Shown: positions 5,580 to 60,675, counted from the first letter of the whole stretch. The stretch is 63,352 bases of DNA, filler included, from GCF_002087085.1; 4 parts of 4 records of this genome joined end to end with filler, not necessarily neighbours in it; one strand, 5' to 3'. Notes: a model not told the origin generated them from the sequence alone. Translations and numbers: made by a program.

Positions 5580-5957
5580 ATGATGTATCGAATATTAAAT
5601 GTTCGTCAGGTTCCCGGGGAGGACTTCAAGGTCTGGTTCACCGATGATTACTGGGATCTGTTTCTCTGGATCGACAGAAACAAGCGAATCAGTTCGTTTC
5701 AGCTTGGCTATGGAAAACCCTCGGAGGAGCAGATGTTGATCTGGCGCAGGGGCGGCGGCCTCACTGCCGCCAGGGTCAGTGACGGCGAGGAAACCCTCAC
5801 AGAAAACCGGACCCCCCTGCTCACGGAAACCAGTGACTATGATCTGGATTCGGTAATCGAACGCTTTTCAGGGGACAGCAAAAAAATCAATTCAAAAATC
5901 GCCGACTTTGTCGTATCCACCCTCACGCGCTACCGTCAGGCTCAGAGACGCCTGTAG
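5580..5957 (+). CDS. Hypothetical protein
   Basis: Protein-like ORF 'VRQVPGE...WFTDDYWDLFLW...FQLGYGK'; start chosen at the MMYR ATG. Confidence 0.65.
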   Translation: MMYRILNVRQVPGEDFKVWFTDDYWDLFLWIDRNKRISSFQLGYGKPSEEQMLIWRRGGGLTAARVSDGEETLTENRTPLLTETSDYDLDSVIERFSGDSKKINSKIADFVVSTLTRYRQAQRRL

Positions 5958-6948: not shown

Positions 6949-7689
6949 TCAGCGTTTGAGACAGATAAAGGAAGAAAAATTATACCAGCAGAAGAACCGG
7001 TCCACCGAGGCGAATCCTGTGTCGAAAAAGAGGGCCTCCTCTTCCTGGACCGAATAGGGAATCAGAACATTCTCCAGGGCTTCCCGCTTCTGGGAGATCT
7101 CCAGCTCCGAGTAGCCGTTGGCCCGCTTGAAATCATAGTATTTGTCTATGAATATGCGGCTCATGTCCGTATGGCTCTGGGTAGTTTTGTCGGAAACGAT
7201 AAGGATTCCGTTGTGCTCCAGGGATTCGTAGATTTTCCGCACAAGGGCTTCCCGCTTCAGGGGAGAAACAAACTGCAGGGTATAGTTCATCAGGATCACG
7301 CTGGCTTTATCCAGCGAGGTATCCTCGATAGACTCGTTGCGAATCACGACGGGAGAATCCTCTCCGTACATCTCCTCCAGTTTTTCCCGGGCCCGCTGGC
7401 ACATGGCCGGCGAATTGTCCACCCCGACAAGAGAAACGGAATCGAATCCCTTCGCCTTCAGGGCTTCTGCAGCCAGGATCGTACCCGTTGCGGTAGAACA
7501 GCCGAGATCATACAGTATGCTCCCGGCCTGGTAGAACTCAGCGCTCAGGGAGGCACTCATCTGTTCGACCTGACGATACCAGGGAATGGAACGGTCGGCC
7601 ATATCGTCAAATACCCGGGCCACTTCGCTGTTGAACACGAAGGGCGCAACGCCGGGCATCGGGGTGTCGAATATCCGGTCCCGGGGCAT
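6949..7689 (-). CDS. cmoA: Carboxy-S-adenosyl-L-methionine synthase
   Basis: 'FDDMADRSIPWY', 'YDLGCS', 'NYTLQF', 'EISQKREALENVL'. Start at MPRDRIF overlaps the upstream SDR stop (TGATG). Confidence 0.93.
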   Translation of the reverse strand: MPRDRIFDTPMPGVAPFVFNSEVARVFDDMADRSIPWYRQVEQMSASLSAEFYQAGSILYDLGCSTATGTILAAEALKAKGFDSVSLVGVDNSPAMCQRAREKLEEMYGEDSPVVIRNESIEDTSLDKASVILMNYTLQFVSPLKREALVRKIYESLEHNGILIVSDKTTQSHTDMSRIFIDKYYDFKRANGYSELEISQKREALENVLIPYSVQEEEALFFDTGFASVDRFFCWYNFSSFICLKR

Positions 7690-8639: not shown

Positions 8640-9482
8640 CTAACCTTTCAGTCCTGTTGTCGTTATACCCTCAACAAAATATCGCTGGGCGAAAAAGAAG
8701 ATCAGGATCGGCGGAATCATGGTAAGCAGGGACATGGCCATGAGCTGGTTCCAGCTTATGGCGTCGGTTATATCCATGGACATCCGCAAGGCCAGGGATA
8801 GGGGATACTTCTTGACGCTGTTGATGTAGATAAGGGGATTCAGAAAGTCATTCCAGCGCCAGATAAACTGGAAAATTCCGGCGGAAAAGAGAGCCGGCTT
8901 CAGCAGCGGAGCCATAATCCGGGTAAAGATGGTAAAGGAGTTACAGCCGTCGATATAGGCGGACTCATCCAGCTCTTTTGGAATTCCCCGGATAAACTGC
9001 ACCATCATGAAAATAAAGAAGGAGTAGGTGGCAAACATCGCCGGGACAATAAAGGGCAGATAGGTGTTCAGCCAGCCCAGGCTCCGGAACAGAATGTACC
9101 GGGGTATGATGATCACCGCGTTGGGCAGCATGAGCTGGGAGATCATCAGTATAAACAGGAGCTTCTTGAAAGGAAAGCGGAAGCGGGCGAAACCGTAGCC
9201 CACCAGAGCGCTGGAAACAATCGTTCCCAGAACGGTGGGAATAACCATCAAAAAGGTGTTGATAAAGAAGGTCCCGTAGGAATACTGCCCGGATCCCTGC
9301 CACCCCCTGGCATAGGCATCGGTAACCAGCTCTCCGGGGATAAGTCCCAGGGAGGTAAAAATCTCCTGGTTTGTCCGGAACGAGGAGGCAAAGAGCCACA
9401 GCAGGGGATAGACCATTACCAGACCCAGCAGGGAAAGAAAGATGTAGGCCGCAATCTTGTTCTGTTTTATATCAACTCTCAT
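8640..9482 (-). CDS. Carbohydrate ABC transporter permease (MalG/TogN-like)
   Basis: EAA motif 'ELDESAYIDG' and multiple TM helices. Confidence 0.92.
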   Translation of the reverse strand: MRVDIKQNKIAAYIFLSLLGLVMVYPLLWLFASSFRTNQEIFTSLGLIPGELVTDAYARGWQGSGQYSYGTFFINTFLMVIPTVLGTIVSSALVGYGFARFRFPFKKLLFILMISQLMLPNAVIIIPRYILFRSLGWLNTYLPFIVPAMFATYSFFIFMMVQFIRGIPKELDESAYIDGCNSFTIFTRIMAPLLKPALFSAGIFQFIWRWNDFLNPLIYINSVKKYPLSLALRMSMDITDAISWNQLMAMSLLTMIPPILIFFFAQRYFVEGITTTGLKG

Positions 9483-9483
9483 C

Positions 9484-10392
9484 TCAGTTCTCCCCGTCTT
9501 CATAGTGGGTCCAGTAGGGCGACGATTTGAATACCATCGCTGTAAAGGCCATCATTATGGCAAAGAGAATCCACGACAAGGCGGATGCATAGCCCATCTT
9601 GAAGAAATTAAAGGCGTTTTCGTAGATCATGAGGCCATAGAGGTAGGTCGCCTTCATGGGACCGCCGTTGGTAATGACAAAGGCGGGGGTAAACTGCTGG
9701 AAGGCGTTTACCATCTGCATGATCAGGTTAAAGAAGATCATGGGGGTAATCAGGGGCAGGGTAATATTCATAAATGTCCGGATCCGGCCGGAGCCGTCCA
9801 CCGTGGCAGCGTCATACAGATCCCGGGGGATCTGCTTGAGGCCCGCAAGAAAGATTACCATGGACGAACCGAACTGCCATACCGTCAGGAGACTTATAGT
9901 ATAGAGAGCCAGGTCAGGATTTCCCAGCCAGTCAATTCTCGGTAGATGCAGGGTCGAGAACAGCTGATTTATCAGCCCCTGTCGGGCAAAGAGAAACTTC
10001 CACAGGATGGAAACGGCGACACTGCCGCCGAGAATGGAAGGCATATAGTAGACTGTCCGGTAAAAGTTCACATACCTGATTTTCAGGTTGAGGACCATGG
10101 CAATAAAAAGAGCGAAGGCCAGTTTCGCCGGAACCGCGATAAAAACATAGATCAGCGTAACCTTCAGCGACTGCAGAAAGGTTTTGTCATCGCTAAAGAT
10201 CTGAATGAAGTTCTGCAGGCCGACAAACTTCGGCGGTGTCAGAATCGAGAAGCGGGTGAAAGAGTATACCAGCGATGCTATAAACGGATAGAGCTGGAAC
10301 GCCAGCATCCCGATAAGCCAGGGGCTGATATAGAGGAATGCAGCGTAATTATACCTCTTCCGTGCTTTCAGTTTTGCCGTTGCGGTATTCAT
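9484..10392 (-). CDS. Carbohydrate ABC transporter permease (MalF/TogM-like)
   Basis: 'LYDAATVDG' EAA motif and TM helices. Confidence 0.92.
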   Translation of the reverse strand: MNTATAKLKARKRYNYAAFLYISPWLIGMLAFQLYPFIASLVYSFTRFSILTPPKFVGLQNFIQIFSDDKTFLQSLKVTLIYVFIAVPAKLAFALFIAMVLNLKIRYVNFYRTVYYMPSILGGSVAVSILWKFLFARQGLINQLFSTLHLPRIDWLGNPDLALYTISLLTVWQFGSSMVIFLAGLKQIPRDLYDAATVDGSGRIRTFMNITLPLITPMIFFNLIMQMVNAFQQFTPAFVITNGGPMKATYLYGLMIYENAFNFFKMGYASALSWILFAIMMAFTAMVFKSSPYWTHYEDGEN

Positions 10393-25565: not shown

Positions 25566-25665
25566 NNNNNNNNNNNNNNNNNNNNNNNNNNNNNNNNNNN
25601 NNNNNNNNNTTAATTAATTAANNNNNNNNNNNNNNNNNNNNNNNNNNNNNNNNNNNNNNNNNNNN
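25566..25665. other. Artificial contig spacer
   Basis: N-run + TTAATTAATTAA + N-run, 100 bp. Confidence 0.99.
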
Positions 25666-47853: not shown

Positions 47854-47953
47854 NNNNNNNNNNNNNNNNNNNNNNNNNNNNNNNNNNNNNNNNNNNNTTA
47901 ATTAATTAANNNNNNNNNNNNNNNNNNNNNNNNNNNNNNNNNNNNNNNNNNNN
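47854..47953. other. Artificial contig spacer
   Basis: N-run + TTAATTAATTAA + N-run. Confidence 0.99.
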
Positions 47954-48051
47954 CCGAGCTCTATCATGAACGGGACGACACCCGTCTCCTTCATGAGCCA
48001 GGTATCCCGGAGGAGGCTTTTCTTTTCGCTTATTGTGTAATTAGTTTTCAT
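47954..48051 (-). CDS. 5' end of a gene truncated by the contig edge (MKTNYTISEKKSLLRDTWLMKETGVVPFMIEL...)
   Basis: ATG at 48051 with AAAGGG upstream, open to the contig end; not in the ORF track. Confidence 0.5.
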
Positions 48052-48118
48052 ATCATAATCCCTTTATTTTAATGATAATCATACCGTTGTAAGATTATCA
48101 TTGATTAAAAAATATCAT

Positions 48119-48679
48119 TTACGCAAAAAAACCAAGATACTTGGCATCTTCAGATATAGGAAAACATTCGTGTGAATCACTGCTATCGAAATAGATGGAA
48201 TCACCAGGATTTAAAATGTATTTCTTATCCTTTATCCTAACACACAAAATCCCTTCAATAAGGTAAATAAACTCTTGTCCATCATGTGAATCATTATGGG
48301 TCCGAACATTTTTCTTATTTGCATTATAAAGAAAGGCCTGAATTTTATTTTCTTTGTGCTCAGTAGCATAAGGGAAGATATCAAATCCTTTTTCCGTTCG
48401 TATAAAGCTTTTTTCTGCTTTATCCTTATTTGTCAAAACAACGTTAGTCGGGCTTTCTTCCTCTAAAATACTTTGAATATTTGTATTTAATGCCTTTGCT
48501 ATTTTGAACAAAGTACCGGCTGAAGGGAAAATCTTGTCGTTCTCTATTTTTGATATAAGACTCACAGAGAATCCGCTATTTTTAGCAACATCTTTAAGAG
48601 TATATTTAAGCTGCTTCCGTAGTTTTCTTATTCTTTTTCCAATACGAAGCTCTTTTTCCTCTACGGTTGTCGTTAACAT
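48119..48679 (-). CDS. XRE HTH + cupin transcriptional regulator
   Basis: 'IGKRIRKLR...SLISKIEND..PS', 'HDGQEFIY', 'GDSIYFDS..H'. Confidence 0.9.
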   Translation of the reverse strand: MLTTTVEEKELRIGKRIRKLRKQLKYTLKDVAKNSGFSVSLISKIENDKIFPSAGTLFKIAKALNTNIQSILEEESPTNVVLTNKDKAEKSFIRTEKGFDIFPYATEHKENKIQAFLYNANKKNVRTHNDSHDGQEFIYLIEGILCVRIKDKKYILNPGDSIYFDSSDSHECFPISEDAKYLGFFA

Positions 48680-48789
48680 GCTATCTCACCCACAAAAATC
48701 TTTCTGTTAATTATTATGAATAGATGGAGCACAGGACACTTCTTTAATAATTTGTATCTCACAGATACCTCCATATCTAGATTAATAAC

Positions 48790-49959
48790 TTATTCCGCAA
48801 GTTTCAGTATGTTAATAATGTCATCTTTTCCAAGTGAAACAACATTCCCTACAGAACCATTACGGCCATACAAGGTCTTTACAGCTATCTCATTAAAGTT
48901 ATCTTCGCCTATACCTATGTGTTTTAATTTTGTTGGTAATCCAAGAAATGTGAAAAAACTCTCAAGACGGTTTATACCTTCCATAATTGTTTCTTTTGGA
49001 TTTTCAAAATTTTGATCAATATTCCAAACCCTGACAGCAAATTGAAGAAATTTCTCTGATAGTTTCTCTTGAACATATTTTGCCCATGCTGGAAAAATAA
49101 TTGCAAGTCCAGCACCATGTGCCACATCATTTATACTAGACAACTCATGTTCAATAAAATGAGATCCAAAGTCCCCAATACGTCCAGTACTTAGCAAATT
49201 ATTATGCGCTATTGTGGATGCCCACATAATCTCAGCTCTAGCATTATAATCTTTTGGATTTTTACTGACTATATAGGCGTTGTTTATTACAGTCTTCATC
49301 GTGGCTTCACATAGTCTGTCTGTAAAATCGACATTTTTTATATTTGTAAAATATCGCTCCATTACATGTGACAGAATGTCTGCAATTCCACATGCAGTTT
49401 GATATTTTGATAAAGTGAATGTTAATTCCGGATTCATGAAAGTGAATGACGGTCGATTCATTTCCATATTTAGAGGACGTTTCAACATGCCTTCTTCATT
49501 TGTTATAACTGAACTATGTGAGGCCTCACTACCAGCAGCAGGAATAGTTAATACTGATCCTACTCCAAGTTTTTTTTCTGGAGTTGCTTCGCCAGAATAG
49601 AAATTCCAAACATCTCCACTGTATGGTACTCCGACGGCTATTGCTTTAGCAGAATCAATAACACTTCCTCCACCAACTGCGAGTACAAAATTCAGATCAT
49701 TCTCTCGGCATATTTTTATGCCCTCTCGAACAAGACTAAGTCTTGGATTAGGCTGAACCCCACCCAACTCAATAAATCTTATTTTCTCAGATTTAAGAGA
49801 ATGTACAATTCTATCATATAATCCATTCTTTTTTATACTTCCTCCGCCATAATGTAAAAGGCATGACGAAGAATGCTTCTTGACTTCTTTTCCAACATGT
49901 TCCTCGACATCTTTACCAAAAATTATTTTTGTTGGATTTAAAAACTCAAAATTATTCAT
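48790..49959 (-). CDS. Iron-containing alcohol dehydrogenase (butanol dehydrogenase type)
   Basis: 'NPTKIIFG', 'GGGSVIDSAK', 'GSE', 'DILSHVMERY', 'HFIEH', 'AHGAGL'. Confidence 0.93.
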   Translation of the reverse strand: MNNFEFLNPTKIIFGKDVEEHVGKEVKKHSSSCLLHYGGGSIKKNGLYDRIVHSLKSEKIRFIELGGVQPNPRLSLVREGIKICRENDLNFVLAVGGGSVIDSAKAIAVGVPYSGDVWNFYSGEATPEKKLGVGSVLTIPAAGSEASHSSVITNEEGMLKRPLNMEMNRPSFTFMNPELTFTLSKYQTACGIADILSHVMERYFTNIKNVDFTDRLCEATMKTVINNAYIVSKNPKDYNARAEIMWASTIAHNNLLSTGRIGDFGSHFIEHELSSINDVAHGAGLAIIFPAWAKYVQEKLSEKFLQFAVRVWNIDQNFENPKETIMEGINRLESFFTFLGLPTKLKHIGIGEDNFNEIAVKTLYGRNGSVGNVVSLGKDDIINILKLAE

Positions 49960-50082
49960 CCTAAAGCCTCATTTAAGTAACAATCATTTTTGTCTTGCAT
50001 AATCTAAATAGAAAATTATTTTTCTATTTTAGCCTCAATTGTATTTTACAGAAAAAATCTCGTAAATATTTCTTTTTAATTC

Positions 50083-51360
50083 TTAAAAAACCAGATTCGG
50101 AAGAAACATCACGATATCCGGGACAAACGCCATAACCAAAATCAAAGCGAAGACAGACACAAAGAACGGGACAGACTCCTTTGCATAGTCCTCGATTTTC
50201 ACATTCATTATGGAACATGTTGCGTACATCGCCATACCTACTGGTGGTGTCATGTTTCCAAAGGTCAAAGTACTCATCATTATTAAACCATAATGTACAG
50301 GATCTATCCCGGCTTTTACAATTATAGGTGTTAAGATAGGACCAAATATCAACACTGTGGCGTTTGGATCAAGAAACATTCCAGTCACTGCAAAAAATAG
50401 AATAGACAATAGCATAAGCATATTTGGACCGATAGAAAGTTCACTTAATACTTTGTATAGTTCATTACCTATATTATCGTAAGAAACAATATAACCGATG
50501 ATTGCTGACATTGCTATAATTAACATTACCATCGCATTATCTTTTACAGTTGCAATAATTGTTTCCATCATATTTTTATAGTTTAGTTCTTTGTATATAT
50601 ATTTACCAACTATATACGCGTAAATTACGGCAAATGCTCCTGCCTCGGATGGTGTGAATAATCCGAAACGTATACCAATAATTAAAATTAAAGGAAATAT
50701 TAATGCCCAGATACATTCTCTAAAACTTCCTAATATTTCCCTTATTGAAGCAATGGATTCTCGTTCTGGAACATAATCCCTTTTCTTGGCAATAATACCA
50801 GCTACTGACATAAAAAGAATGGTCATCAAAAACCCAGGGACTATGCCTCCTATAAATAACTTTCCTATCGAAACATTGCATACAAAACCAAAGACTATAA
50901 GGCCAAGGCTCGGAGGTATCGTTGCTGTAATCAAACCAGGCATAGCTATTACTGCAGCAGCATAACCAGAGGAATAATTTCTTTCAAGCATCGTAGGACC
51001 AAGCATTCTAGCTTCCATTGCTGCATCTGCGACAGCCGAACCGGATATACCTCCCATTAAAAAGCTAAGAACACAACTTACATGTGCTAATCCACCTGCG
51101 AGATGACCAGTTATTAAAGTAGCGAATCGCATAAGACGTTGTGTAATACCTGAGGAGTTCATCAAATTACCAGCAAGTATAAAGAAAGGCACAGCGAGCA
51201 ACGGAAAAGACTGAGAGGTTCCGGCGATCTTCTGGACAATAATGCTGATTGGCAACTGTTGATCGATTAAAAAGTATACCGTCCCTGATATACCGATTAC
51301 AAAAGCAACAGGCATTCCAAATACCATAAGTATTATAAAAGTACCCACTACATAAATCAA
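50083..51360 (-). CDS. dctM: TRAP large permease
   Basis: 'GGISGSAVAD', 'TIPPS', 'TPPVG'. Confidence 0.93.
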   Translation of the reverse strand: MIYVVGTFIILMVFGMPVAFVIGISGTVYFLIDQQLPISIIVQKIAGTSQSFPLLAVPFFILAGNLMNSSGITQRLMRFATLITGHLAGGLAHVSCVLSFLMGGISGSAVADAAMEARMLGPTMLERNYSSGYAAAVIAMPGLITATIPPSLGLIVFGFVCNVSIGKLFIGGIVPGFLMTILFMSVAGIIAKKRDYVPERESIASIREILGSFRECIWALIFPLILIIGIRFGLFTPSEAGAFAVIYAYIVGKYIYKELNYKNMMETIIATVKDNAMVMLIIAMSAIIGYIVSYDNIGNELYKVLSELSIGPNMLMLLSILFFAVTGMFLDPNATVLIFGPILTPIIVKAGIDPVHYGLIMMSTLTFGNMTPPVGMAMYATCSIMNVKIEDYAKESVPFFVSVFALILVMAFVPDIVMFLPNLVF

Positions 51361-51400
51361 TTTATATCTCCTAAAACAATATTATTCATGAAATTAGTTA

Positions 51401-51883
51401 TTAACGTCTTACAGTCATAGACTTCAACTCTAAAAAGCTTTTATAAATTTCGACAGCCGAAGTAACTAACATTGACGTTGCTCCGATAGGCACACTTATG
51501 GTGCATACAGAGTAACTAATTCTAAATGATTGAAAAGTTCGTCCAATATTCTCGTAACTTAGCTGAAAGCCATAAAAAATTAATATGCACAAGAAAAAGG
51601 AAATTATAATATTGTTAATTATCCGTACAATAATCTGTTTATCCTCTGGAAATTTTTCAACAATTAAATCAATACCAATGTGGCCTTTATACCTGTAAAC
51701 AATATCTGCTCCCAGGAAAATTAACCACGCAAAAAGCAGTTGAGCTATTTCGACAGACCAAATAATTGGTCTGTCAAAAAAACGCGTAATTGATGAAATA
51801 AATACCAAGATTACAATCGCAACAAGAAAATACCCGGCTATTTTTTCTTCAATCCTTATAGCTGTTCTATATAATCGCTTCAT
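51401..51883 (-). CDS. dctQ: TRAP small permease
   Basis: 'PIIWSVEIAQ..FAWLIFLG...HIGID'. Confidence 0.88.
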   Translation of the reverse strand: MKRLYRTAIRIEEKIAGYFLVAIVILVFISSITRFFDRPIIWSVEIAQLLFAWLIFLGADIVYRYKGHIGIDLIVEKFPEDKQIIVRIINNIIISFFLCILIFYGFQLSYENIGRTFQSFRISYSVCTISVPIGATSMLVTSAVEIYKSFLELKSMTVRR

Positions 51884-51901
51884 AATTCTTTGATCAGGCA
51901 A

Positions 51902-52900
51902 TTAGTTGCTTTCTATTTCCTTTCTTATTTCGTCATATAGTTCTTTGTATCCCAATTTGTCATAGACTTTTCTGGTTGCTTCTCGGAAAAGATCTACATC
52001 AGGTTCTATTATTGTCATACCATTTTCCTGCAAAACCTGTTCGTAATACTTTCGTTTTTCAACCATATCTCGTACCTGCATATCTCCAACTCTAGCAGCT
52101 TCCTCTCTTAACAATATCTGTAAGTCTTCAGGTAATTTATAGAACCATTTACTACCGACCGCGATACCATTAAGCAGATGAAAATGCCCGGTTTTACTGA
52201 CATATTTGGCTACTTCATAGAGTCGTGAGCCATCTATTGCTGAAAACTGAGCTTCCAAACCATCGACAACTTTCTGCTGAATTGCCTGATATGCTTCTGA
52301 CCATGGCATTGCTGTTCCTACACCACCCATCGCATTTATTGATTCTATATAGATTGGGGCTCCCATCGTACGAATTCGGAGTCCATTTAAATCATCTGGC
52401 GTTCGTACAGGTTGGTTTGTGACAAAATGTCTCTGTCCTGAAAACCAGTTAGTTGACAACTCAACAATACCATGCTTTTCATCTAATTCTTTTACCCATC
52501 TCTTGTAAGCAGAAGTTTCCATAATTTTATTAACCTGGAAAATATCATCTAACAAGAAAGGACCTGCCATTATTCCCATTTCAGGTACGATTGTAGAAAA
52601 TCGACCCGGATCACTTAGAAATCCGATATCGGCACCAACCTTAGCCTGCTCCTGGGTATCTTCGGTGGAACCCAATTGGCTGGAATGAAAAACAGATACT
52701 TTCAGTCTCCCATTTGACTTTTTTTCCAATTCATCCGCAAGAATTTGCATATGAACAGTAACCGGGTCATCAGCAGTTACGGCAGTTGTTAGTCGTAATG
52801 TATATACTTCTTCTTTGGCTCCAGTTCCATCTTGCGCACCTCCACCAAATGCCAATGTAGCCATCAAAGAACACAACATAAGGACTACGATCTTTTTCAT
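51902..52900 (-). CDS. dctP: TRAP solute-binding subunit
   Basis: Leader MKKIVV..., 'GQRHF', 'GLRIRT', 'VVDGLE'. Confidence 0.9.
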   Translation of the reverse strand: MKKIVVLMLCSLMATLAFGGGAQDGTGAKEEVYTLRLTTAVTADDPVTVHMQILADELEKKSNGRLKVSVFHSSQLGSTEDTQEQAKVGADIGFLSDPGRFSTIVPEMGIMAGPFLLDDIFQVNKIMETSAYKRWVKELDEKHGIVELSTNWFSGQRHFVTNQPVRTPDDLNGLRIRTMGAPIYIESINAMGGVGTAMPWSEAYQAIQQKVVDGLEAQFSAIDGSRLYEVAKYVSKTGHFHLLNGIAVGSKWFYKLPEDLQILLREEAARVGDMQVRDMVEKRKYYEQVLQENGMTIIEPDVDLFREATRKVYDKLGYKELYDEIRKEIESN

Positions 52901-53396
52901 GATACTTCCCCTTTGCAAAATAATATTTTCAAAAAAGTAAAATTATATATATAATTTTACTTAGAAGAAACATTTTAACCAGTATTTATAGGTCATTTAT
53001 TGTGTACAATCCTTTCTTTTAACGAAAAAATATCGTTAAATATATATAAAGTAAGTATTTGCAATGTATATGACATAATTACTCTATCAATGTCTTTGAT
53101 ACTTTCATTTTTATGATAGTTCAACTTTTACTATCTGTCAAACTGAAATTTTAAAAAATATGCACATATCATATAATTCAGCCTCTATGATGAAATAACT
53201 AAACTGGTTTTATCTAAATTACATAAGTACGGTAGAAAAGGGACTAAAGAGAGATTTCATATATTATTCATTATTATACGTGATGAAACTTAGAGAAAGA
53301 AGCTGCCATTTTTAAATTAAAGCTTTACGCAATATATAAATATTTTACTATTCTGACATGATAAATAGAAACCCAGCAATTGATAATTGCTATAAG

Positions 53397-54535
53397 TGTA
53401 TTTGCAGGTCCAAAGCGGACACTTTTTCCGATCTTCCGGAATTGCCTTATAAGGAAATCTTCGATCAAAAACGAGCTACTGCCTATAATGATGGTAACAA
53501 CACTACTGGAGTACTTCATGCCAAGAGCGAGGATAAAATTGAAACTGTTACGAAAATTACTTTCTCTCACGTAGGGGAATAACCTAAGTCTCAGGGAAAC
53601 CAAACAGCTTTCAGGAATCCCAAGAACGACCATCAATGATTTTCTTGTACGGTTCCGGCGGTGCGGAATCTCTTATGATGTGAGCCTGAATCTCAACGTT
53701 ATGAAGCGGATTTAACTCCTGTGGAAAAAACAGGAGGAAAGTGAACAGTACACCACATTGGTATCAATCTTTACTAAGTACGGCCGCCGCTTCTAAAGCG
53801 CGGTCAGTACACTACTCATTCAGCACATATGCCGCCGAAACACCAGTTTGTCCATTCCTTGTCCGCTGAACGGTTTCAAACCTGGGCCCGCTCGATAGGA
53901 AAAGAAACCTGCCTAGTGGTTTCTCATCTGTTAAACTGTAAGCCCCATAAAAATCAGGCCTACGAATCCTGCCTCAGGGCTCTCTCCCTGGCTAAAAAGC
54001 ATAGAAACGAAGATTTGAACCTGGACTGCCGCAGGGCTTCAATTACGACCGGATCAGCTTCAAAGAAGTAAAACTGTATCTGAAGGACCTGATAGACAGC
54101 AAGAACGATTCTACGGGGAATGAGCAGATTCTCCCCTTTGCCACCCATAAAAACCTCAGGGTCAAAGCCGTTTACAAATAACAGGAGCAATCAGTGAACA
54201 ACCACGTTACAATCAATAAATTAAGCCAGATGCGCCTTCATGGCATGGTTACGACCTATAGGACGCTCATGGAGACCGGAAAAAATATGAACTTGACCAC
54301 TGACGAGGTAGTCAGCTATCCGGTGAACGCGGAATGGTATAAGAAACACAACCAACGACTGGACCGTTTACTCCGTGCCGCGCGATTCCGTTACCATACC
54401 GGCCTTGGAGAAATCGACTACTCCCTGGATGGGACTGTTGATAAAAACCAGATTCTACGGCTCTCAGACTGCTCCTGTATCGATAAGGGACAGGACATTC
54501 TTATAAGCGGTCCCACGGAGTTCCCGGTATATTAA
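53397..54535 (+). pseudogene. Degenerate, internally deleted IS21-family element (istA fragments + truncated istB)
   Basis: istA N-terminus from 53518 'MPRARIK..RKLLSL*..LSLRE...PRTT', istA C-terminus 'HMPPKH...WARSIG...QAYESC', and istB 54194-54535 ending at the Walker A 'ISGPT'. Possible TG end at 53397. Confidence 0.75.
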
Positions 54536-54539
54536 AGTA

Positions 54540-55231
54540 CTACTAACCGGGTTCAGCGAGTATCTTCTTCAGACCGATGGATAGGAAGCCTATGAGACAT
54601 TTCTCACCAGTAACGATGGTATTATTGATGTTGGTTGTATGGCGCATGCCCTCCTGAAGTTCCGCGAAGCTTCCAAGGCAACCAAGAAATCAGCAAGTGC
54701 GCAGGAAGCCATGAACAGGATCAGACAGCGCTACGTGCGAGAAAGAGGCTTTACGCAGTAAGGATTCGCTGTCTGAGCAGTTCGCAGTTTGTCGTAGAGC
54801 GAAAGAGCAAGGCAGAACCGGTCATAGGCAGTTCAAAGAGTGGCTTGAGAAGCGCAGTCTGCAGGTGCCACTGTCTCTGCTTCGGGGAATTCGATTCAGT
54901 ATACTCTGAATGAATGGCCTGAACTTGTTCAATACCTCGATTCACCGTATCTATCCCCGGACAATAACAGTGCAGAACTGGCTATCAGGACTTTTGTCGT
55001 CGGCAGGAAGAACTGGCTCTTCTCGGAAAAATCCAAAGGGGTTGAGAGTTCCTGCGCTATGCATTCACTACTTGAGACAGCACAACAAAACAACGCTAAT
55101 CCCAATGTTTATGTGCGAGCAATCTTTGAAATGGCCTAATCTGCACGGACTGAGGAAGATTGGAAGACGCTCCTCCTCTGGAACATCAATCGTTGAATTT
55201 TTCCATAGCTTGCAGTTTATTTGAAGCTTAC
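54540..55231 (+). pseudogene. Degenerate IS66 tnpC remnant with right end
   Basis: Frameshifted motifs 'LQTDG', 'GCMAH', 'DNNSAELAIRTFVVGRKNWLFS'. Ends ...GTTTATTTGAAGCTTAC at 55231, resembling the reverse complement of the IS66 end at 47799. Confidence 0.8.
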
Positions 55232-55319
55232 CAATAATCACAATAAATCCTCACAAAAATTAACATATCTGTTACCGACTCCTCAGTAAGCGAATAGTAA
55301 GTATGTAACGGAGGACAAG

Positions 55320-55535
55320 ATGGCGTTAAACAAATTTCTAAATACAACACTTCTTACATACAACCAGGCGGCAGCACTTCTAAACATCTCACCAGGTACC
55401 CTTCGACGGTGGGTCATGCAAAAAAAGATTCCGTACATCAAGTTATTAAATCGCTCTGTTCGCTTTGAAGCAAAGGAGCTTGAGAGGTGGGTCAAACAAC
55501 AGACAAGAACTCAGGAGGTTCAAAATGATAACTGA
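55320..55535 (+). CDS. Excisionase-like HTH protein
   Basis: 'LLTYNQAAALLNISPGTLRRWV..KKIPYIK...VRF..ELERW'; GGAGG RBS. Confidence 0.88.
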   Translation: MALNKFLNTTLLTYNQAAALLNISPGTLRRWVMQKKIPYIKLLNRSVRFEAKELERWVKQQTRTQEVQNDN

Positions 55536-55683
55536 TCTTATACCGTATTTTAAGTGGATCATGGAAACACTTGATAAACTTAAGTTTGGAGAAATTACCC
55601 TCTCCATAATTGTTCATGAGGGTAAGATTAGACGATTTAAACAGTCGGTAGAAGAAAGCCATCTCCCGGAGAACAAATCATGA
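55525..55683 (+). CDS. Small DUF2292/YezD-like protein
   Basis: 'LKFGEITLSIIVHEGKI'; AGGAGG RBS; overlaps both neighbours. Confidence 0.6.
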   Translation: MITDLIPYFKWIMETLDKLKFGEITLSIIVHEGKIRRFKQSVEESHLPENKS

Positions 55684-56279
55684 ATAATCAACTTAAACGA
55701 ACCACGTTCTCTATGAACCGGGTGTCGGAATATTTCTCTGAGAAAAAACTTAATATGCAGATCGGTCATAACCGATCTGCATGGAAGTTAGCTATTCTCA
55801 AAGAACTAATAGATAATGCCTTGGATGAGTGCAAGAAGCAAAGGATCCAACCACGAATTAATATTCTTATCAAGGAATCTTACTTCGAGGGCAGTGATAA
55901 TGGGACTGGTATTCCTGTATCGACTATAACTAAGTCTTTGGATTATAGTATCAGCGTATCCGATAAGCAATTCTATATCTCTCCTAGCAGAGGCCAGTTA
56001 GGTAATGCCATGAAAACAATCTGAGCTGCGCCATTAGTCGATTCCGACAAAGCTATTTTCGTAATTGAGGTACAGGGAATTTTTCACCGTTTTGAGGTGT
56101 CCTTTGATAAATTAAAACAAGAGCCTATCATTCAACATTGTAAAGAAACAATGTTTATTGTTAAACCAGGAACAAGATTTAGGATCTATTGGAGGGATTC
56201 AGCTTGCCTACTCAATAAACATACTAATTCACTTTCTTACAATATAACGCTTATGATCTCGTCTTTGCCAATTCTTTAA
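55680..56279 (+). pseudogene. GHKL ATPase, topoisomerase VI subunit B-like, with in-frame TGA and truncation
   Basis: 'KELIDNALD', 'DNGTGI', 'SRGQLGNAMK'. The frame continues after the TGA at 56022-56024 into the 56097-56279 ORF. Confidence 0.7.
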
Positions 56280-56492
56280 TGAAGTAATCCAGCAGATATT
56301 TGGGACTTAGCGGTGTGGAACATTGCAAAAGGAGTTCTGGACGTAGATTCTGACATAGGGTGAGGAGCTGTCTGATAGGAACTGTCTGATATTTCCAAAA
56401 CAGAGATCAACAGAAAAACACAAAAAGTTGACATATTTTTATGTTATATATACAATTAATCACAAGCGGACACGCTCGGTAACATATTGAAA

Positions 56493-56539
56493 TCGGGCTC
56501 ATAACCCGGAGGTCGCAGGTTCGAGTCCTGCCCCTGCTA
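56493..56539 (+). pseudogene. 3' half of tRNA-Met(CAT), probable att-site duplication
   Basis: TCGGG-CTCATAA-CCCGG anticodon arm, GCAGG-TTCGAGT-CCTGC T-arm and CCCTGCTA; no pairable 5' acceptor strand or D-arm upstream. Confidence 0.82.
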
Positions 56540-56540
56540 T

Positions 56541-56580
56541 AAAAAGCACCGAAGTCCTTTAGGGCTTTGGTGCTTTTTTA
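56541..56580 (+). terminator. Intrinsic terminator after the tRNA fragment
   Basis: AAAAAGCACCGAAGTCC-ttta-GGGCTTTGGTGCTTTTT. Confidence 0.8.
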
Positions 56581-56712
56581 TTGTAGAAAGCAGAACGAGT
56601 GTAGACTCGCACATTAAATTAAACAAACCTGTGTAGAAAATCTCAAGAACAGTTACACAATCTCGCAAATGATTTAGGGAGGGATTCCATGTGTCCGACA
56701 TAAAAAAGAGCA

Positions 56713-57291
56713 ATGGTTAAGAAGTTGACGCTTCCCATTGCTCTTAAAACTCTCCCCGAGGGGAAAAAATCGTTACTTATTTGTCGGATAGAATTAGAAA
56801 AAGTTCAAGAGCTTGGGAAGAAATTTCGATGGAAAAATCCCGGAAGGTGTCTTGTCTGTGGGAGTACCCGCCTGTGGGGCCATGGATTTGTCCTGAGGTA
56901 TTTCTTTGGATTTGCTTCAGGAGTGTGGATAAAACGATGGCGGTGCCCGGAATGCGGGTCCGTTCATACCGTGCGACCTGAAAGCTTTCTTCCCGGGATG
57001 CAGTATCCGAAATCTACCCAGCGATCAAGTCTGGAATCGAAACTTGCCGGGAAATCTTTTCTTAAGACAGTCTCCCGCCAGATTCAGCAGCACTGGTGGC
57101 GAACATTCCGTCATCTCTGTCGGGAATCGGGAAACTGGACTGACCTTCGGAAGTTCCTGACCGAGCACCTTCTCCCGGATCAGTTGCCGGTGACAAAGCG
57201 ACGAATCTACCGTGCAAGCTGGCCGACAGCAGTATCTCCCTACCTGCCTTTTGCGCTGACAGTCAGACCGCCCCCATTTAGTTTTGAGTGA
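56713..57291 (+). CDS. Zinc-finger protein (DUF6431-like) of the transposon; start uncertain
   Basis: 'CLVCGS..LWGHG' and 'RWRCPECG..HT..P'. Confidence 0.75.
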   Translation: MVKKLTLPIALKTLPEGKKSLLICRIELEKVQELGKKFRWKNPGRCLVCGSTRLWGHGFVLRYFFGFASGVWIKRWRCPECGSVHTVRPESFLPGMQYPKSTQRSSLESKLAGKSFLKTVSRQIQQHWWRTFRHLCRESGNWTDLRKFLTEHLLPDQLPVTKRRIYRASWPTAVSPYLPFALTVRPPPFSFE

Positions 57292-57320
57292 ACGAAATTA
57301 CTTCACTCAAAGGAGAAAAA

Positions 57321-58598
57321 ATGGACCGGGAAAAGCAGGAGAAAATCGCCGTATTTCGTTTTGGCGTCATCTTTCCGCTTGTGGAGAAGGACCTTCACGA
57401 ATACTGGGGAGAAAAGGAGCGCATTCTTAAGGAACTGGTCAGCAAAGAATGGGAGATCCCGTACTCAAAGCGGACCTACATCAGCAAGGCCACTCTGTTG
57501 AACTGGGTAAAGCGCTATGAAGACGGCGGGCGTAAGATCGAAGCATTGTTCCCCGAAAGCCGCGGCGATCGGGGTAGGATGAGGAGCATCTCCGATGAGC
57601 AGATTGATGCGCTTATGAGACTTCGAAGTGAGAACCCAAAACTTTCTACGCCTCGGCTTGTAGAAAAGGCTCAAGGAGCACGAGTGTTTCCGCCGGGCAC
57701 CGAGGTCTCCATGGCCAGTATCTACCGGCTTTTGAAGATCCGCAAAGCAAAGCGACAGAAGAGTGAGCAGGATATGCGGAAGTTCGAGGTGCAGATGTCC
57801 AACGATCTGTGGCAGTCGGACTGCATGCATGGCCCGCAGATCGTTATCAATGGGAAAAAGCGCAAGACCTATCTGTTTGCCATCATCGACGACCACAGCC
57901 GACTGATTACTCATGGTCAGTTTTACCCGGCTGAGAACCTGGAGAATTACCTGGACTGCCTGTGGACAGCAATGCGCAAACGAGGACTGCCAAGAAAGCT
58001 GTATGTGGACAATGGAGCCTCCTTCAGGGCCCACCGGCTACAGCTGGGCTGTGCAGCTCTTGAAGTTGGCTTAAAGTACGCCAGGCCGTATCGTCCCCAG
58101 GGGAAGGGAAAGATTGAGCGTTTTTTCCGTACCGTCAGGATGCAGTTCCTGCCAGAGCTGAATGAGAACCTGGACCTTGAGAAGATCAACGAATTGTTTG
58201 CCCGGTATATAGAACACCAGTACCACCAGAGGATACACGGAACGACCGGTCAGAAACCGATAGACCGATACCTGGCAGATGTGAAGGCGCTCAGGAAAGC
58301 ACCGGATGACCTTCCTGAGTATTTCCGGAAGCAGGAGATCCGAAAAGTGAACAAAGACCGCACCGTGCAGTTGTCCGGACGACTCTATGAGGCTCCGGCC
58401 GGGCTTGTGGGGATGAAAGTCGTCCTGCGGTACGAGAATACCGACCGAATTGAAGTGTTCGTTGATGAGAAGTCACGGGGATTCCTGAAAGACCTCAATC
58501 AGGAAGTAAACAGTCGCATTAAACGCGATCGCCCAGATCCAAGCGGCCCGACTATAACCGGCGGACAGCTGTTTGAACGAACGGCGGGAGGACGATGA
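57321..58598 (+). CDS. DDE (rve) transposase with Mu-like C-terminal domain
   Basis: 'LWQSD', 'IDDHSR', 'YVDNG', 'GKGKIERFFRT', 'RKVNKDRTV'; AGGAG RBS. Confidence 0.92.
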   Translation: MDREKQEKIAVFRFGVIFPLVEKDLHEYWGEKERILKELVSKEWEIPYSKRTYISKATLLNWVKRYEDGGRKIEALFPESRGDRGRMRSISDEQIDALMRLRSENPKLSTPRLVEKAQGARVFPPGTEVSMASIYRLLKIRKAKRQKSEQDMRKFEVQMSNDLWQSDCMHGPQIVINGKKRKTYLFAIIDDHSRLITHGQFYPAENLENYLDCLWTAMRKRGLPRKLYVDNGASFRAHRLQLGCAALEVGLKYARPYRPQGKGKIERFFRTVRMQFLPELNENLDLEKINELFARYIEHQYHQRIHGTTGQKPIDRYLADVKALRKAPDDLPEYFRKQEIRKVNKDRTVQLSGRLYEAPAGLVGMKVVLRYENTDRIEVFVDEKSRGFLKDLNQEVNSRIKRDRPDPSGPTITGGQLFERTAGGR

Positions 58599-59401
58599 TG
58601 GATTCCATACGACATCACTTTGGATTGAAGAAGGATCCTTTCCCGCAGAATATGGCCGTGAAGGATCTGTATCCGCTGCCTGCACTTACTCCCCTGGAAC
58701 AGCGGGTGTTCTTTGCTGTGGGCCAAAAGGCGATAGCAGTAATCACCGGTGATGTAGGCTCCGGGAAATCTACCTCTCTGCGCTATGTGGCCAGCAAGTT
58801 CCACCAGAGCGAATATGAGCTGATTTCCATCGTCGGCGGCAACTACTCGCCGATGGAGTTGTACCGGCAGATTCTCTTAAACTTTGGCGTGAGCTATATG
58901 TCATATCAGGTGTCGGTGATGATCGCAAGAATCCGGGAGATCATTCTGGAAATCGCATCCAGAAAAGTCACACCGGTGCTTATCATTGATGAGGCTCACT
59001 TGCTCAAGCGTGCCGTGTTTACCCAGCTGCATACCCTGGCTCAGTTCGAATTTGATTCCCGTCCGGTCATGCCCATGATTCTCTGCGGTCAGGATCTTCT
59101 GCTTGAACACCTTATGGCGAATGCGGTACGCCCTCTTGCATCCCGGATCCTGGGACGCACCCACCTGGAAGCGATCAAGATGGAAGTTATGGAAGAATAC
59201 CTGAATCACCATATCCGCCTTTCAGGGAGCACCAGCAAGATATTCAGTCAGGAAGCGATCTTTGCCATCCACCAGGGATCCGGTGGCTTATTGCGTAGAG
59301 CCAACTCTTTGGCGAAGACCGCGCTCATGGCCAGTGCGCTGGAAGGGGGCCATACTATCTCGGCGGAACATGTCCGTCTCGCTGCAACAGAGATTCTGTA
59401 A
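58595..59401 (+). CDS. ExeA/TnsC-like AAA+ ATPase
   Basis: 'FGLKKDPF', Walker A 'GDVGSGKS', Walker B 'IIDEAH', 'LCGQ'. Confidence 0.92.
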   Translation: MMDSIRHHFGLKKDPFPQNMAVKDLYPLPALTPLEQRVFFAVGQKAIAVITGDVGSGKSTSLRYVASKFHQSEYELISIVGGNYSPMELYRQILLNFGVSYMSYQVSVMIARIREIILEIASRKVTPVLIIDEAHLLKRAVFTQLHTLAQFEFDSRPVMPMILCGQDLLLEHLMANAVRPLASRILGRTHLEAIKMEVMEEYLNHHIRLSGSTSKIFSQEAIFAIHQGSGGLLRRANSLAKTALMASALEGGHTISAEHVRLAATEIL

Positions 59402-59515
59402 GTCTGTTCACCCTGCGGCAAAGCCGCAGGGTGAACGTTCATTCAATGTGCATGAGAAATTGTCTAACTGTTCGTGCGAGGGTTTATTTAGTTTAATTTG
59501 AGATTCGACAACGAG

Positions 59516-59790
59516 AGCCGCAGGTGAATAGTCCTGCCCACAGCACATCCCGGACGGGATGTGCAAGCCCAAGCTTGCGGCAGGGTTTTCCGAAGGAAAA
59601 TCCCGAGAGCACGCGCAGGGACTGCTAACCAAACCGGATCGCGAAAGCGGTTCGGTTTTTTTATTTTCTTTCTGGACGAGAACCTTGGCCGAGCACATTG
59701 CAGTGCAATGTGCGGGGTCCGAAAGTTCCACAGGAACTGGAGGATAAGAGTCCTGCCCACAGCACATCCCGACAGGGATTTAGAGGCCGG
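59516..59790. repeat. Structured region with a 23-bp direct repeat and multiple hairpins
   Basis: AGTCCTGCCCACAGCACATCCCG at 59530-59552 and 59749-59771. Hairpins GCACATCCCG-ga-CGGGATGTGC, TTTTCC-gaa-GGAAAA, GCACATTGCA-g-TGCAATGTGC and AGTTCC-aca-GGAACT. Confidence 0.75.
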
Positions 59791-59831
59791 GGTACTGCCT
59801 TCGATAAAGTGGGCTGGAGGGCAAAGAAACT

Positions 59832-59944
59832 TTCACGCACATGAATATTTCAACAAAAACTGAAGCAGACCAGTACAATATTCATGAACATGAAAAAATA
59901 TGGACAAATGACATAAGATGCATTATAATATTCACGAACATGAA
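59832..59944. promoter_or_regulatory. Three palindromic operators, probable HipB sites
   Basis: TTCAYG-NN-CATGAA at 59832, 59881 and 59931 (49-50 bp period); the last overlaps the hipB ATG. Confidence 0.75.
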
Positions 59945-60176
59945 ATTAGCCATTCATTCAGCAGAACAGATCGGAGAACTCATCCGCTGCGAACGGAAGC
60001 GGCAGAAGATCCTGCAGCAGGATCTTGCCGATTTAAGCGGTGTCAGTCTGCACTTTTTATCCAACCTGGAAAACGGTAAAGCCACTGTTGAATTCCAGAA
60101 GGTCCTGCTGGTACTGCGCAGTCTCGGCATCGAAATGGAACTGCGTACCCGCTACACGGATAAAGAGGTGTCATGA
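59940..60176 (+). CDS. hipB: HipB-like XRE antitoxin
   Basis: 'IGELIRCERKRQKILQQDLADLSGVS...LENGK.T' directly upstream of a hipA N-terminus. Confidence 0.82.
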   Translation: MKLAIHSAEQIGELIRCERKRQKILQQDLADLSGVSLHFLSNLENGKATVEFQKVLLVLRSLGIEMELRTRYTDKEVS

Positions 60177-60544
60177 GTCTGCAGGTTTTTTATAATACCA
60201 GACTGGCAGGGACGCTTCATCAATACGAAAACAGCCGGATCAGTTTTGAGTATTCCCGGGACTGGGCCGACACAGCTGATTCGTTTCCGATCTCCCGGAG
60301 TATTCCCCTTTCTGGTAACTATGAACGAGGGACAACAGACCACCGCTTCTTTGCCAACCTTTTGCCCGAAGCCGCCGCGCGGGAAACGATATGTTGAGGT
60401 CTGGGAATTTCTCTGGATAATGATTACGAATTACTGTCAGCAATCTGCGGGGAATGCGCCGGCGCCCTGCAGATTATACCCGAAGGTGCTGAAAAAACCA
60501 CCACCCACGAATATGTTCCTCCTAAAGTGAGCGATTCCGAATAG
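60173..60544 (+). pseudogene. hipA: hipA pseudogene (N-terminal subdomain only)
   Basis: 'FEYS..W...PISRSIPL', 'FFANLLPE'. In-frame TGA at 60395-60397, then 'LLSAICGECAGALQI', then TAG at 60542-60544; no kinase domain. Confidence 0.8.
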
Positions 60545-60575
60545 AAATGAACTCCGCCAGCGGTTTTACCCTAGC

Positions 60576-60675
60576 NNNNNNNNNNNNNNNNNNNNNNNNN
60601 NNNNNNNNNNNNNNNNNNNTTAATTAATTAANNNNNNNNNNNNNNNNNNNNNNNNNNNNNNNNNNNNNNNNNNNN
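60576..60675. other. Artificial contig spacer
   Basis: N-run + TTAATTAATTAA + N-run. Confidence 0.99.

Follow-up and report, generated by a model that had tools for sequence, protein, structure and literature searches.

A 2,911-bp element at positions 56600-59510 of a 63,352-nucleotide stretch of DNA from GCF_002087085.1 (hereafter the window) is, with a probability that we place at roughly 0.85, an autonomous and probably active insertion sequence (IS) of a three-gene family, whose products, encoded by open reading frames (ORFs) 1-3, would act by a scheme of the Mu/IS21/Tn7 type and whose insertion is not directed by tRNA genes. The window is made of contigs joined by spacers of N at 25566-25665, 47854-47953 and 60576-60675, and features on opposite sides of a spacer are not genomic neighbours; the element lies on contig C31, which spans window positions 47954-60575. 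A preliminary description of this DNA had presented the element as an intact Tn7/Mu-like transposon with TGT...ACA ends, a 5-bp ACGAG duplication, repeated sub-terminal motifs and three intact genes, possibly placed by a zinc-finger protein at a fixed distance downstream of tRNA genes. The ends, the duplication, the motifs and the genes are all borne out by our analysis, and the targeting is not.

As read from the sequence, the element starts with TGT and ends with ACA, and is bounded on both sides by the target-site duplication ACGAG (56595-56599 and 59511-59515). The terminal inverted repeats are 30 bp long, the left one starting with TGTAG (56600-56629, plus strand) and the right one ending in ...CGACA (59481-59510, minus strand); comparison of the first 30 bases with the reverse complement of the last 30 gives a match at 24 of 30 positions. 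Internal to the left repeat is a conserved sub-terminal block, a candidate second protein-binding site (56647-56673, plus strand), composed of GAACAGTTACACAA at 56647-56660 and TCTCGCAAATGA. This block is also found at the right end and in relatives L003, L004, L009, L016 and L019, and its right-hand form, GAACAGTTAGACAA in reverse complement, occupies 59460-59473 on the minus strand and is supported by the family alignment. The 11-nt core of the terminal site, with up to three mismatches allowed, occurs seven times in the element on both strands, and five of these occurrences fall within the terminal 130 bp. When the ends of nine family members are aligned, they show conservation of the terminal block TGTAGnnTCnCAnATTA...AACC and, among the closer relatives, of a second end block of the form TCnCAnGAACAGTTAnACAA-TyTC. 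A variant of the element in a sludge metagenome (run X6) has a loose end at window position 59495, and its right tip matches the left tip at 14 of 15 positions, which is a better inverted match to the left tip than that of the window's own right end.

These features go beyond chance because an uninterrupted site, near-identical copies and contig breaks at the element's ends all agree with them. In the congener G002, an intact tRNA-Met is followed by a terminator and then by ...ctggACGAGaaccgcagg..., which holds ACGAG once and no element, and the uninterrupted sequence ...ctggACGAGaaccgcaggtgaa... runs on into that of the window's right flank. G002 also carries two copies of the element, identical to it at 99% along the full 2,911 bp; their ends are the same and their flanks differ. 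One copy, L107, is bounded by a CCCCT duplication and sits inside a group II intron, between the Rfam matches to D1-D4 and to D5/D6 (at 5764-5840 and 9387-9498 of that locus), while the other, L106, lacks a duplication and has its closest tRNA 6 kb away. The window's own genome holds a single copy. In addition, a 3,034-bp contig from a public run covers exactly 56600-59510 with 27 differences, and contigs from three sludge metagenomes hold the element in pieces, stopping or diverging from the window at 56600 and at 59510-59512. No joint, neither an empty site nor a circle junction, was seen in the public runs, for which contigs only were searched and none of which is recorded as RNA, and a plasmid collection yielded no match to the element's DNA and none to the ORF1 protein.

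The three genes are intact, with open frames at 56713-57291, 57321-58598 and 58595-59401, all on the plus strand. ORF2 (57321-58598, 425 aa) starts with an ATG at 57321, a GTG at 57288 being also open, and is predicted from its Pfam matches to be a DD(35)E transposase with HTH_32, rve and Mu-transpos_C domains, the last at 32.9 bits against a cut-off of 21.7. Its residues D167, D230 and E266 are invariant in 35 sequences. The NCBIfam profile of IS481 (NF033577) aligns with ORF2 over model positions 5-284 of 284 (3.2e-56), at 190.9 bits against a cut-off of 224, and the NCBIfam IS21 profile scores 74 bits against 160. Among sequences in the PDB, ORF2 matches IS21 IstA (IS5376) at 2e-10 and ShCAST TnsB at 8e-6 over residues 208-381. 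ORF3 (58595-59401, 268 aa) is predicted to be an AAA+ ATPase (Pfam AAA_22, 76.5 bits), and its Walker A (G52/G55/G57/K58) and Walker B (D132/E133) residues are invariant in 33 sequences. Its structural model (predicted local distance difference test, pLDDT, 89.5) was matched by Foldseek to AAA+ proteins of the initiator type, among them ORC/Cdc6, to ShCAST TnsC (7m99, template-modelling scores 0.74/0.77), to MuB (8xvb, 0.67/0.72) and to the TnsC proteins of Tn7 and Tn6677, so that the modelled fold appears to match ShCAST TnsC and MuB about as well as ORC/Cdc6. By sequence, ORF3 has no match in the PDB at E ≤ 0.1 and no Pfam match to TniB (PF05621) or IstB_IS21 at E ≤ 0.01; likewise, none of the three ORFs matches a TnsA domain at E ≤ 0.01. 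The element has three ORFs in all and no resolvase. The start of ORF3 overlaps the stop of ORF2 (ATGA), which suggests coupled translation, and a hairpin with a perfect 14-bp stem right after ORF3 (59406-59436, plus strand), present at the same place in L004, L038 and L047, is probably the terminator of the operon.

ORF1 (56713-57291, 192 aa) is a zinc-ribbon protein that matches Pfam DUF6431 at 27.9 bits against a cut-off of 26.6, and the same domain is matched in all 24 aligned ORF1 relatives at E ≤ 1. Residues C46, C49, C78 and C81, together with H57 and H85, are invariant; the zinc ribbon is followed by a helical domain and then by a conserved C-terminal tail, PYLPFALT...SLE. In the structural model, which has a mean pLDDT of 64, residues 88-159 give many weak matches of the helix-turn-helix (HTH) type, with a best Z of 5.3 for any chain in VIA-align, and the ESM Atlas neighbours of ORF1 are DUF6431 clusters, two of which also have HTH_23 in 13-33% of their members. 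The modelled helical domain is probably an HTH. Against the PDB, ORF1 gives chance-level zinc-finger matches only by sequence (E ≥ 0.24), and its model gives no Foldseek match at E ≤ 0.001, the top rows being generic zinc ribbons (Rpa12/Rpb9, NrdR).

The suggestion that ORF1 might be related to the TniQ selectors of Tn7-like elements finds no support in any detectable homology. ORF1 has no Pfam match to TniQ (PF06527) at E ≤ 0.01, TniQ is not among the 25 families listed of the 65 matched by 24 ORF1 relatives at E ≤ 1, and hhalign gives a probability of 0.43% between the ORF1 family and a profile of three TniQ proteins from the same class, in which TniQ proteins occur in 3 of 151 genomes and none in the window's genome. 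The comparison of structures that had been proposed returned no significant match to TniQ: the TnsD of 9bw1 aligns with the ORF1 model at Z 3.4, among many HTH proteins and at the level of a common arrangement, and the fold searches decide nothing either way. No fused, longer form of ORF1 was found among 7,999 longer candidates, which is weak evidence. ORF1 diverges faster than ORF2 and ORF3, with identities of 66% versus 80% and 80% in the Salinispira comparison, 36% versus 51% and 54% for OY764216.1, and 48% versus 65% and 67% in a further comparison. Judged by its conservation, ORF1 is an integral third gene that encodes a core subunit with predicted DNA-binding features.

A scan of species-representative genomes, the window's own contig aside, provided 77 related loci. 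Most are from Spirochaetota, and the others are labelled Desulfobacterota, Ignavibacteria, Omnitrophota, Planctomycetales, Eubacteriales and Methanosarcinales. Among the 60 loci where 2,300 bp or more follow ORF1, the trio is whole and in the same order in 40, partial in 19, which are deleted, interrupted or cut copies, and absent from one. The element in the window has the genes that define the family, namely DUF6431, an rve and Mu-C transposase and AAA_22 in this order on one strand, as well as the ends that define it, inverted repeats of the TGTAGnnTCnCAnATTA type bounded by a duplication of 4-6 bp. A word index gave 35 homologues of ORF1, many of them on contigs of 2.9-3.0 kb, and many homologues of the family lie on contigs of 2.9-3.1 kb. 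A profile search with ORF1 reached 593 clusters at E ≤ 0.001, 62 of them at E ≤ 1e-30, and all matches among the 150 listed are short stand-alone proteins; for ORF2, 5,284 clusters among 7,999 scored were matched at E ≤ 1e-20. Public names for the homologues of ORF2 are 'DDE-type integrase/transposase/recombinase', 'putative transposase', 'InsO family' and, once, 'IS481 family' (NCBI 'IS481 family transposase'). Relatives of ORF1 occur in one of five congeners and in 6 of 41 genomes, G000 included, and the family is multi-copy in three complete metagenome-assembled genomes (MAGs). Around more distant pairs of DDE transposase and ATPase genes in the same class, the ORF1 profile matched the upstream ORF in 5 of 20 regions, and eight chosen upstream ORFs with a CxxC...CxxC pattern gave five Pfam matches to DUF6431, two of them above the cut-off.

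In the literature, a preprint describes a 'repetitive gene cassette' of DUF6431, a DDE-type integrase plus an AAA ATPase that is present in 15 copies in Clostridium sp. JS66, where recombination between two of the copies gave rise to a 63-kb deletion (bioRxiv 10.64898/2026.08.16.744336). A table in another paper places DUF6431 next to a DDE-type integrase in Ruminococcus gnavus (PMC12323340). Apart from the JS66 preprint, our literature searches returned no description of the family. Taken by gene content, the trio appears to constitute a widespread and under-described three-gene IS family.

Where copies of this family insert was determined from those whose ends were confirmed by copy-to-copy alignment or have TGT...ACA with the family terminal block. 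Automatic end-finding by inverted-repeat score missed the copies of OY764216.1, produced several false ends and was dropped. Outside one genome rich in satellite DNA, 19 copies could be delimited: 11 have a 5-bp duplication (ACGAG, CCCCT, ATCGT, CATGC, TGCGG, ACGAT, GTATT, GCACC, CTCCG, AGTAT and AGTGC), three a 4-bp duplication (CCAT, CGAA and CTGC) and five none. No common target motif is evident among these 14 duplicated 4-5-mers, and by eye a minority of them fit the NYSRN rule of phage Mu. At the 13 uninterrupted sites that could be rebuilt from copies with a duplication, a frame of at least 200 aa spans the junction in six, and one copy in OY764216.1 is nested in a related element of the L016 type. 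Near two Salinispira copies we noted ALIL pseudoknots (L003 3530-3646 and L005 10898-11014), the frameshift signal of IS3-type elements. To judge from these pseudoknots and from the interrupted group II intron, the two Salinispira copies and L107 sit among other mobile elements. A tRNA or tmRNA lies within about 6 kb in 6 of the 77 loci of the scan, and of 18 delimited loci, two contain a tRNA that reaches the Rfam gathering score. Only one related element, L009, comes as close as 300 bp to a tRNA: it follows a tRNA-Asn at that distance, and no exact duplication was found for it (GCCGC versus GCGCC). Target choice is not tRNA-directed, and surviving copies are found in non-essential DNA, that is, in mobile elements, satellites, intergenic DNA and dispensable genes.

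The satellite-rich genome, the MAG OZ245363.1, holds 20 copies or internal-deletion derivatives of a related element. Their flanks consist of a 47-bp GC-rich tandem repeat on the left in 16 of 20 cases and on the right in 18 of 19, and the junctions share phases, with 6 of 16 on the left at phase 15 and 8 of 18 on the right at phase 9-11; these positions are the CCGGG of ...cacgCCGGGcacgccc.... The duplications are CCGGG (twice), CGGG (twice), GCCGGG and CCCC. A 16-mer of the repeat occurs 783 times in 3.5 Mb, versus zero for the reversed control, and by our estimate the satellite makes up a few per cent of the genome. This pattern may come from a genuine hot spot, or else from the survival of copies in neutral DNA, together with recombination of the arrays; L022 and L022b, for example, have an identical 60-bp flank. 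Several further features were seen in this genome (L017-L032 and L045), in which the arrays are kilobases long: those at L019 3400-5827 and 8731-12490 contain 51.6 and 79.8 copies of the repeat around one element. At L024 and L030 the orientation of the array flips across the element, which points to recombination or inversion between copies, and L018, L022, L024, L026, L028-L032 and L045 are internal-deletion derivatives of about 1.0-1.6 kb that keep both ends, like non-autonomous miniature elements.

By analogy with Mu A/B, IS21 IstA/IstB and TnsB/TnsC, ORF2 would bind the terminal and sub-terminal sites, pair the ends, and attach the 3′ termini, at TGT/ACA, to a target whose strands are cut 4-6 bp apart, mostly 5 bp. 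ORF3 would sit on DNA in an ATP-dependent manner, as a platform from which the transposase receives its target DNA, and ORF1 would be a DNA-binding accessory subunit. The copy in the window probably landed in a zone of decayed mobile DNA, at the remnant attachment site of a tRNA-Met island. Several points weigh against this account. This genome holds one copy, and the case for activity is built on its intact genes and on copies at 99% identity elsewhere. Five of the 19 delimited copies lack a duplication, which fits copy-to-copy recombination or intramolecular transposition. The chemistry on the donor side may be replicative, cut-and-paste or copy-out-paste-in, and the element has neither TnsA nor a resolvase. 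The role of ORF1 is inferred throughout, its model having a pLDDT of 64 and its structural matches remaining at the level of a common arrangement (Z 5.3). A relative has an apparent CCGGG hot spot in a 47-bp satellite, and relaxed specificity may not hold family-wide. Finally, the cases in which a left end is the end close to a preceding tRNA (the window's own copy at 60 bp, a remnant in G002 at about 195 bp and L009 at 300 bp) may represent a regional bias.

On the part played by ORF1, we lean, at somewhat less than even odds, toward a place on the target side, where it would, like TniQ, link DNA to the ATPase, but through another fold and with relaxed specificity. We lean this way because the small third protein is, to our knowledge, the target selector in the other known three-component systems of DDE transposase and AAA+ ATPase, and because ORF1 evolves faster than its partners. 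A less likely alternative is that ORF1 works on the donor side, binding the sub-terminal blocks or a promoter in the left end, and helps to assemble the paired ends or represses the operon, with no role in target choice. It would account for the conserved sub-terminal blocks in both ends beyond the terminal repeat, the left one lying between the element's end and the start of ORF1, and for the HTH-like helical domain. It would also agree with the weak matches, at E ≤ 1 and in 18 of 24 members for each, between the ORF1 zinc ribbon and those at the N termini of the IS1595 and ISL3 transposases. The HTH_32 region that gives ORF2 a DNA-binding region of its own, the lack of an ORF1-transposase fusion among the longer proteins (weak evidence) and the precedent of the small selectors all speak against a donor-side role.

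A further possibility, to which we give about one chance in four, concerns the targets themselves: the family would choose them by sequence or DNA structure, such as GC-rich quasi-palindromes and repeats, and their apparent randomness would reflect the diverged specificities of subfamilies. The mostly satellite flanks in OZ245363.1, with junction phases shared at CCGGG, and the faster divergence of ORF1 would both be expected from this. However, satellites are neutral landing sites that survival bias alone would enrich, array recombination copies an element together with its flank, as in L022 and L022b, and the closest relatives of the window's element occupy diverse sites. It is tempting to speculate one step further, although we regard the following as improbable, that the DUF6431 protein is a new, non-TniQ adaptor for target DNA, a zinc ribbon plus HTH of about 190 aa that loads a TnsC/MuB-like ATPase. 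The element would then represent the most compact transposon known with a three-component set of selector, ATPase and transposase, and its specificity would be evolvable, directed to a CCGGG satellite in a relative and broad in this subfamily.

That the copy in the window is a dead relic that merely looks intact is a poor fit to the evidence: the genome has no second copy and decayed mobile genes surround this one, but its three frames are open, the catalytic and Walker residues are invariant, the duplication is intact, and 99%-identical copies occupy other sites in another species and in several metagenomes. The element is thus, by these signs, probably still active. The least tenable explanation is the fixed-distance one of the preliminary description, in which the zinc-finger protein of a Tn7-like element would direct insertion downstream of tRNA genes or at ACGAGA.CC; the element does begin 60 nt after a tRNA-Met 3′ fragment, as had been stated, L009 follows a tRNA-Asn, is oriented likewise and has ACGAG at 4 bp from its left end, a solo left end follows tRNA-Met in G002 and ACGAGAACC recurs at 59676, but the three tRNA distances are unequal (60, about 195 and 300 bp), of the 99%-identical G002 copies one interrupts a group II intron and the other is 6 kb away from the nearest tRNA, no tRNA lies within about 6 kb at 71 of the 77 related loci, no motif is common to the duplicated 4-5-mers, and ORF1 has no detectable relationship to TniQ. 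Tabulating delimited copies against tRNA genes, the check that had been proposed, thus placed them at unrelated sites.

The surroundings of the element offer a different explanation for the nearby tRNA. The tRNA-Met 3′ fragment lies outside the element at 56473-56539 on the plus strand (Rfam tRNA, 31 bits against a gathering score of 29). Its similarity begins at about 56493 and covers the anticodon arm, the T arm and the 3′ acceptor strand, while the 5′ acceptor strand and the D arm are not tRNA-like; from 56493 to 56539 it matches the intact tRNA-Met of congeners at 96-100%. ARAGORN reports no tRNA in the window. From the fragment's end to the first TGT there are 60 nt, the 5-bp duplication included, and within them lies a hairpin with a T-run that resembles an intrinsic terminator (56543-56581, plus strand), a different hairpin taking the same place after tRNA-Met in G002. 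A 55-bp match (96%) to the 3′ part of the tRNA-Met is present on contig C8. To the left of the fragment are a fragment of IstB_IS21 (54194-54532, 113 aa), small unassigned ORFs, a gene for an excisionase-like HTH_17 protein (55320-55535) and a short frame resembling HATPase_c, and to the right of the element are repeats and, within 59841-60397, a HipB-like HTH gene followed by a hipA frame cut down to its N-terminal Couple_hipA domain. On the simplest reading, the fragment is the far attachment site of a decayed island that was once integrated into tRNA-Met, and the IS landed in dispensable DNA.

The solo left end in G002 (L108, G002:C1, minus strand, at about 7480-7556) is a degenerate remnant of a related element. 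It is oriented as in the window, about 195 bp downstream of the intact tRNA-Met, is identical at 50 of 70 positions and scores 55, the shuffle maximum being 27. Unrelated genes come after it, among them ORFs of 1,167 and 644 aa. Directly to the right of the element in the window is a repeat of about 115 nt, at 59516-59630 and 59740-59790, which is also found on G000 contig C12 near 225351-225824. The repeat has seven matches in the genome, itself included, is present in congeners as well, and corresponds to no Rfam family. It ends in the tRNA-3′-like ...GGGACTGCTA, followed by a terminator and ctggACGAGaacc, and could represent remnants of old attachment sites stacked together, or else a small mobile repeat.

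Taken alone, the window is ordinary, containing one IS copy in a graveyard of mobile DNA beside an old tRNA attachment site. The family is of broader importance. Transposons that combine a DDE transposase with AAA+ target capture (Mu, IS21, Tn7 and CRISPR-associated elements) are the main models of regulated target choice and the basis of programmable DNA-insertion tools. To these the family adds a conserved third subunit with a fold that appears different from that of TniQ, and if ORF1 sets or relaxes target choice, it would offer a very small natural system for studying communication between selector and ATPase. The family, represented by 593 ORF1 clusters and by transposase clusters in the thousands, is also frequent among anaerobes and sediment bacteria, and public annotation still presents it as three unrelated genes. 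Recognising it as a unit improves the annotation of DUF6431 genes and explains repeat-mediated deletions such as that in Clostridium sp. JS66.

Among the closest described systems, the JS66 cassette has the same three annotated gene types in multiple copies in a different phylum; the part of the preprint that describes it never uses the term insertion sequence for it and says nothing of ends, of a duplication, of a family or of a mechanism. IS481 provides the best profile match to ORF2, and the two have in common a short duplication and inverted repeats with TGT...ACA. An IS481 element has one gene and a length of about 1-1.3 kb. In contrast, the element in the window measures 2,911 bp and has three conserved genes, its transposase carries an extra Mu-type C-terminal domain and is joined by an AAA+ ATPase and a zinc-ribbon protein, and the score of ORF2, 190.9 bits, stays below the curated cut-off of 224 despite a full-length alignment. 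The TGT/ACA ends are, moreover, a feature that IS481 shares with Tn7-like elements, according to a review from the Peters laboratory (PMC11406308). IS21 likewise combines a DDE transposase with an ATPase in an element of IS size, has several repeats in its ends, and contributes, through IstA, the best sequence match of ORF2 among solved structures. It differs in having no third gene, and the element's ORF3 has no IstB_IS21 match (E ≤ 0.01), while the IS21 profile score of ORF2 is under the cut-off.

With Tn7-like elements, too, there are both resemblances and differences. Like TnsB, ORF2 contains rve and Mu-transpos_C domains; the predicted fold of ORF3 resembles TnsC to about the same degree as ORC/Cdc6 and MuB, the ends are TGT/ACA and the duplications are mostly 5 bp. 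TnsA is found in prototypic Tn7 and is absent from Tn5053 and type V-K elements. For the element's ORFs no match to TnsA, TniQ (PF06527) or TniB (PF05621) is listed at E ≤ 0.01, its selector-like gene comes first in the order, its duplications range from 4 to 6 bp, ORF2 is nearer to IS481 and IstA than to TnsB, and its copies keep no fixed distance or orientation from an attachment site. Tn5469, Tn5541 and Tn5053 (TniA/TniB/TniQ) resemble the element in pairing a DDE transposase with an AAA+ regulator, and Tn5469 and Tn5053 also in having a small selector. In the view of reviews from the Peters laboratory, Tn5469 and Tn5541 are cargo-less and probably lack attachment-site targeting (PMC9881144, PMC11406308). 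Phage Mu shares with the element the Mu-transpos_C domain of ORF2, the MuB filaments among the best fold matches of ORF3 and a 5-bp duplication, and the low target specificity of Mu is a further resemblance. The element differs in not being a phage, in having a transposase less than two thirds the length of MuA and in having a third, zinc-ribbon protein. The name Tn7/Mu-like transposon is thus only partly apt, as the transposase is nearest by sequence to IS481 and to IstA of IS21, no relationship of ORF1 to TniQ is detectable and insertion is not at a fixed distance; what it does convey is an intact, cargo-less element that combines a DDE transposase bearing a Mu C-terminal domain with an AAA+ protein of predicted TnsC/MuB-like fold.

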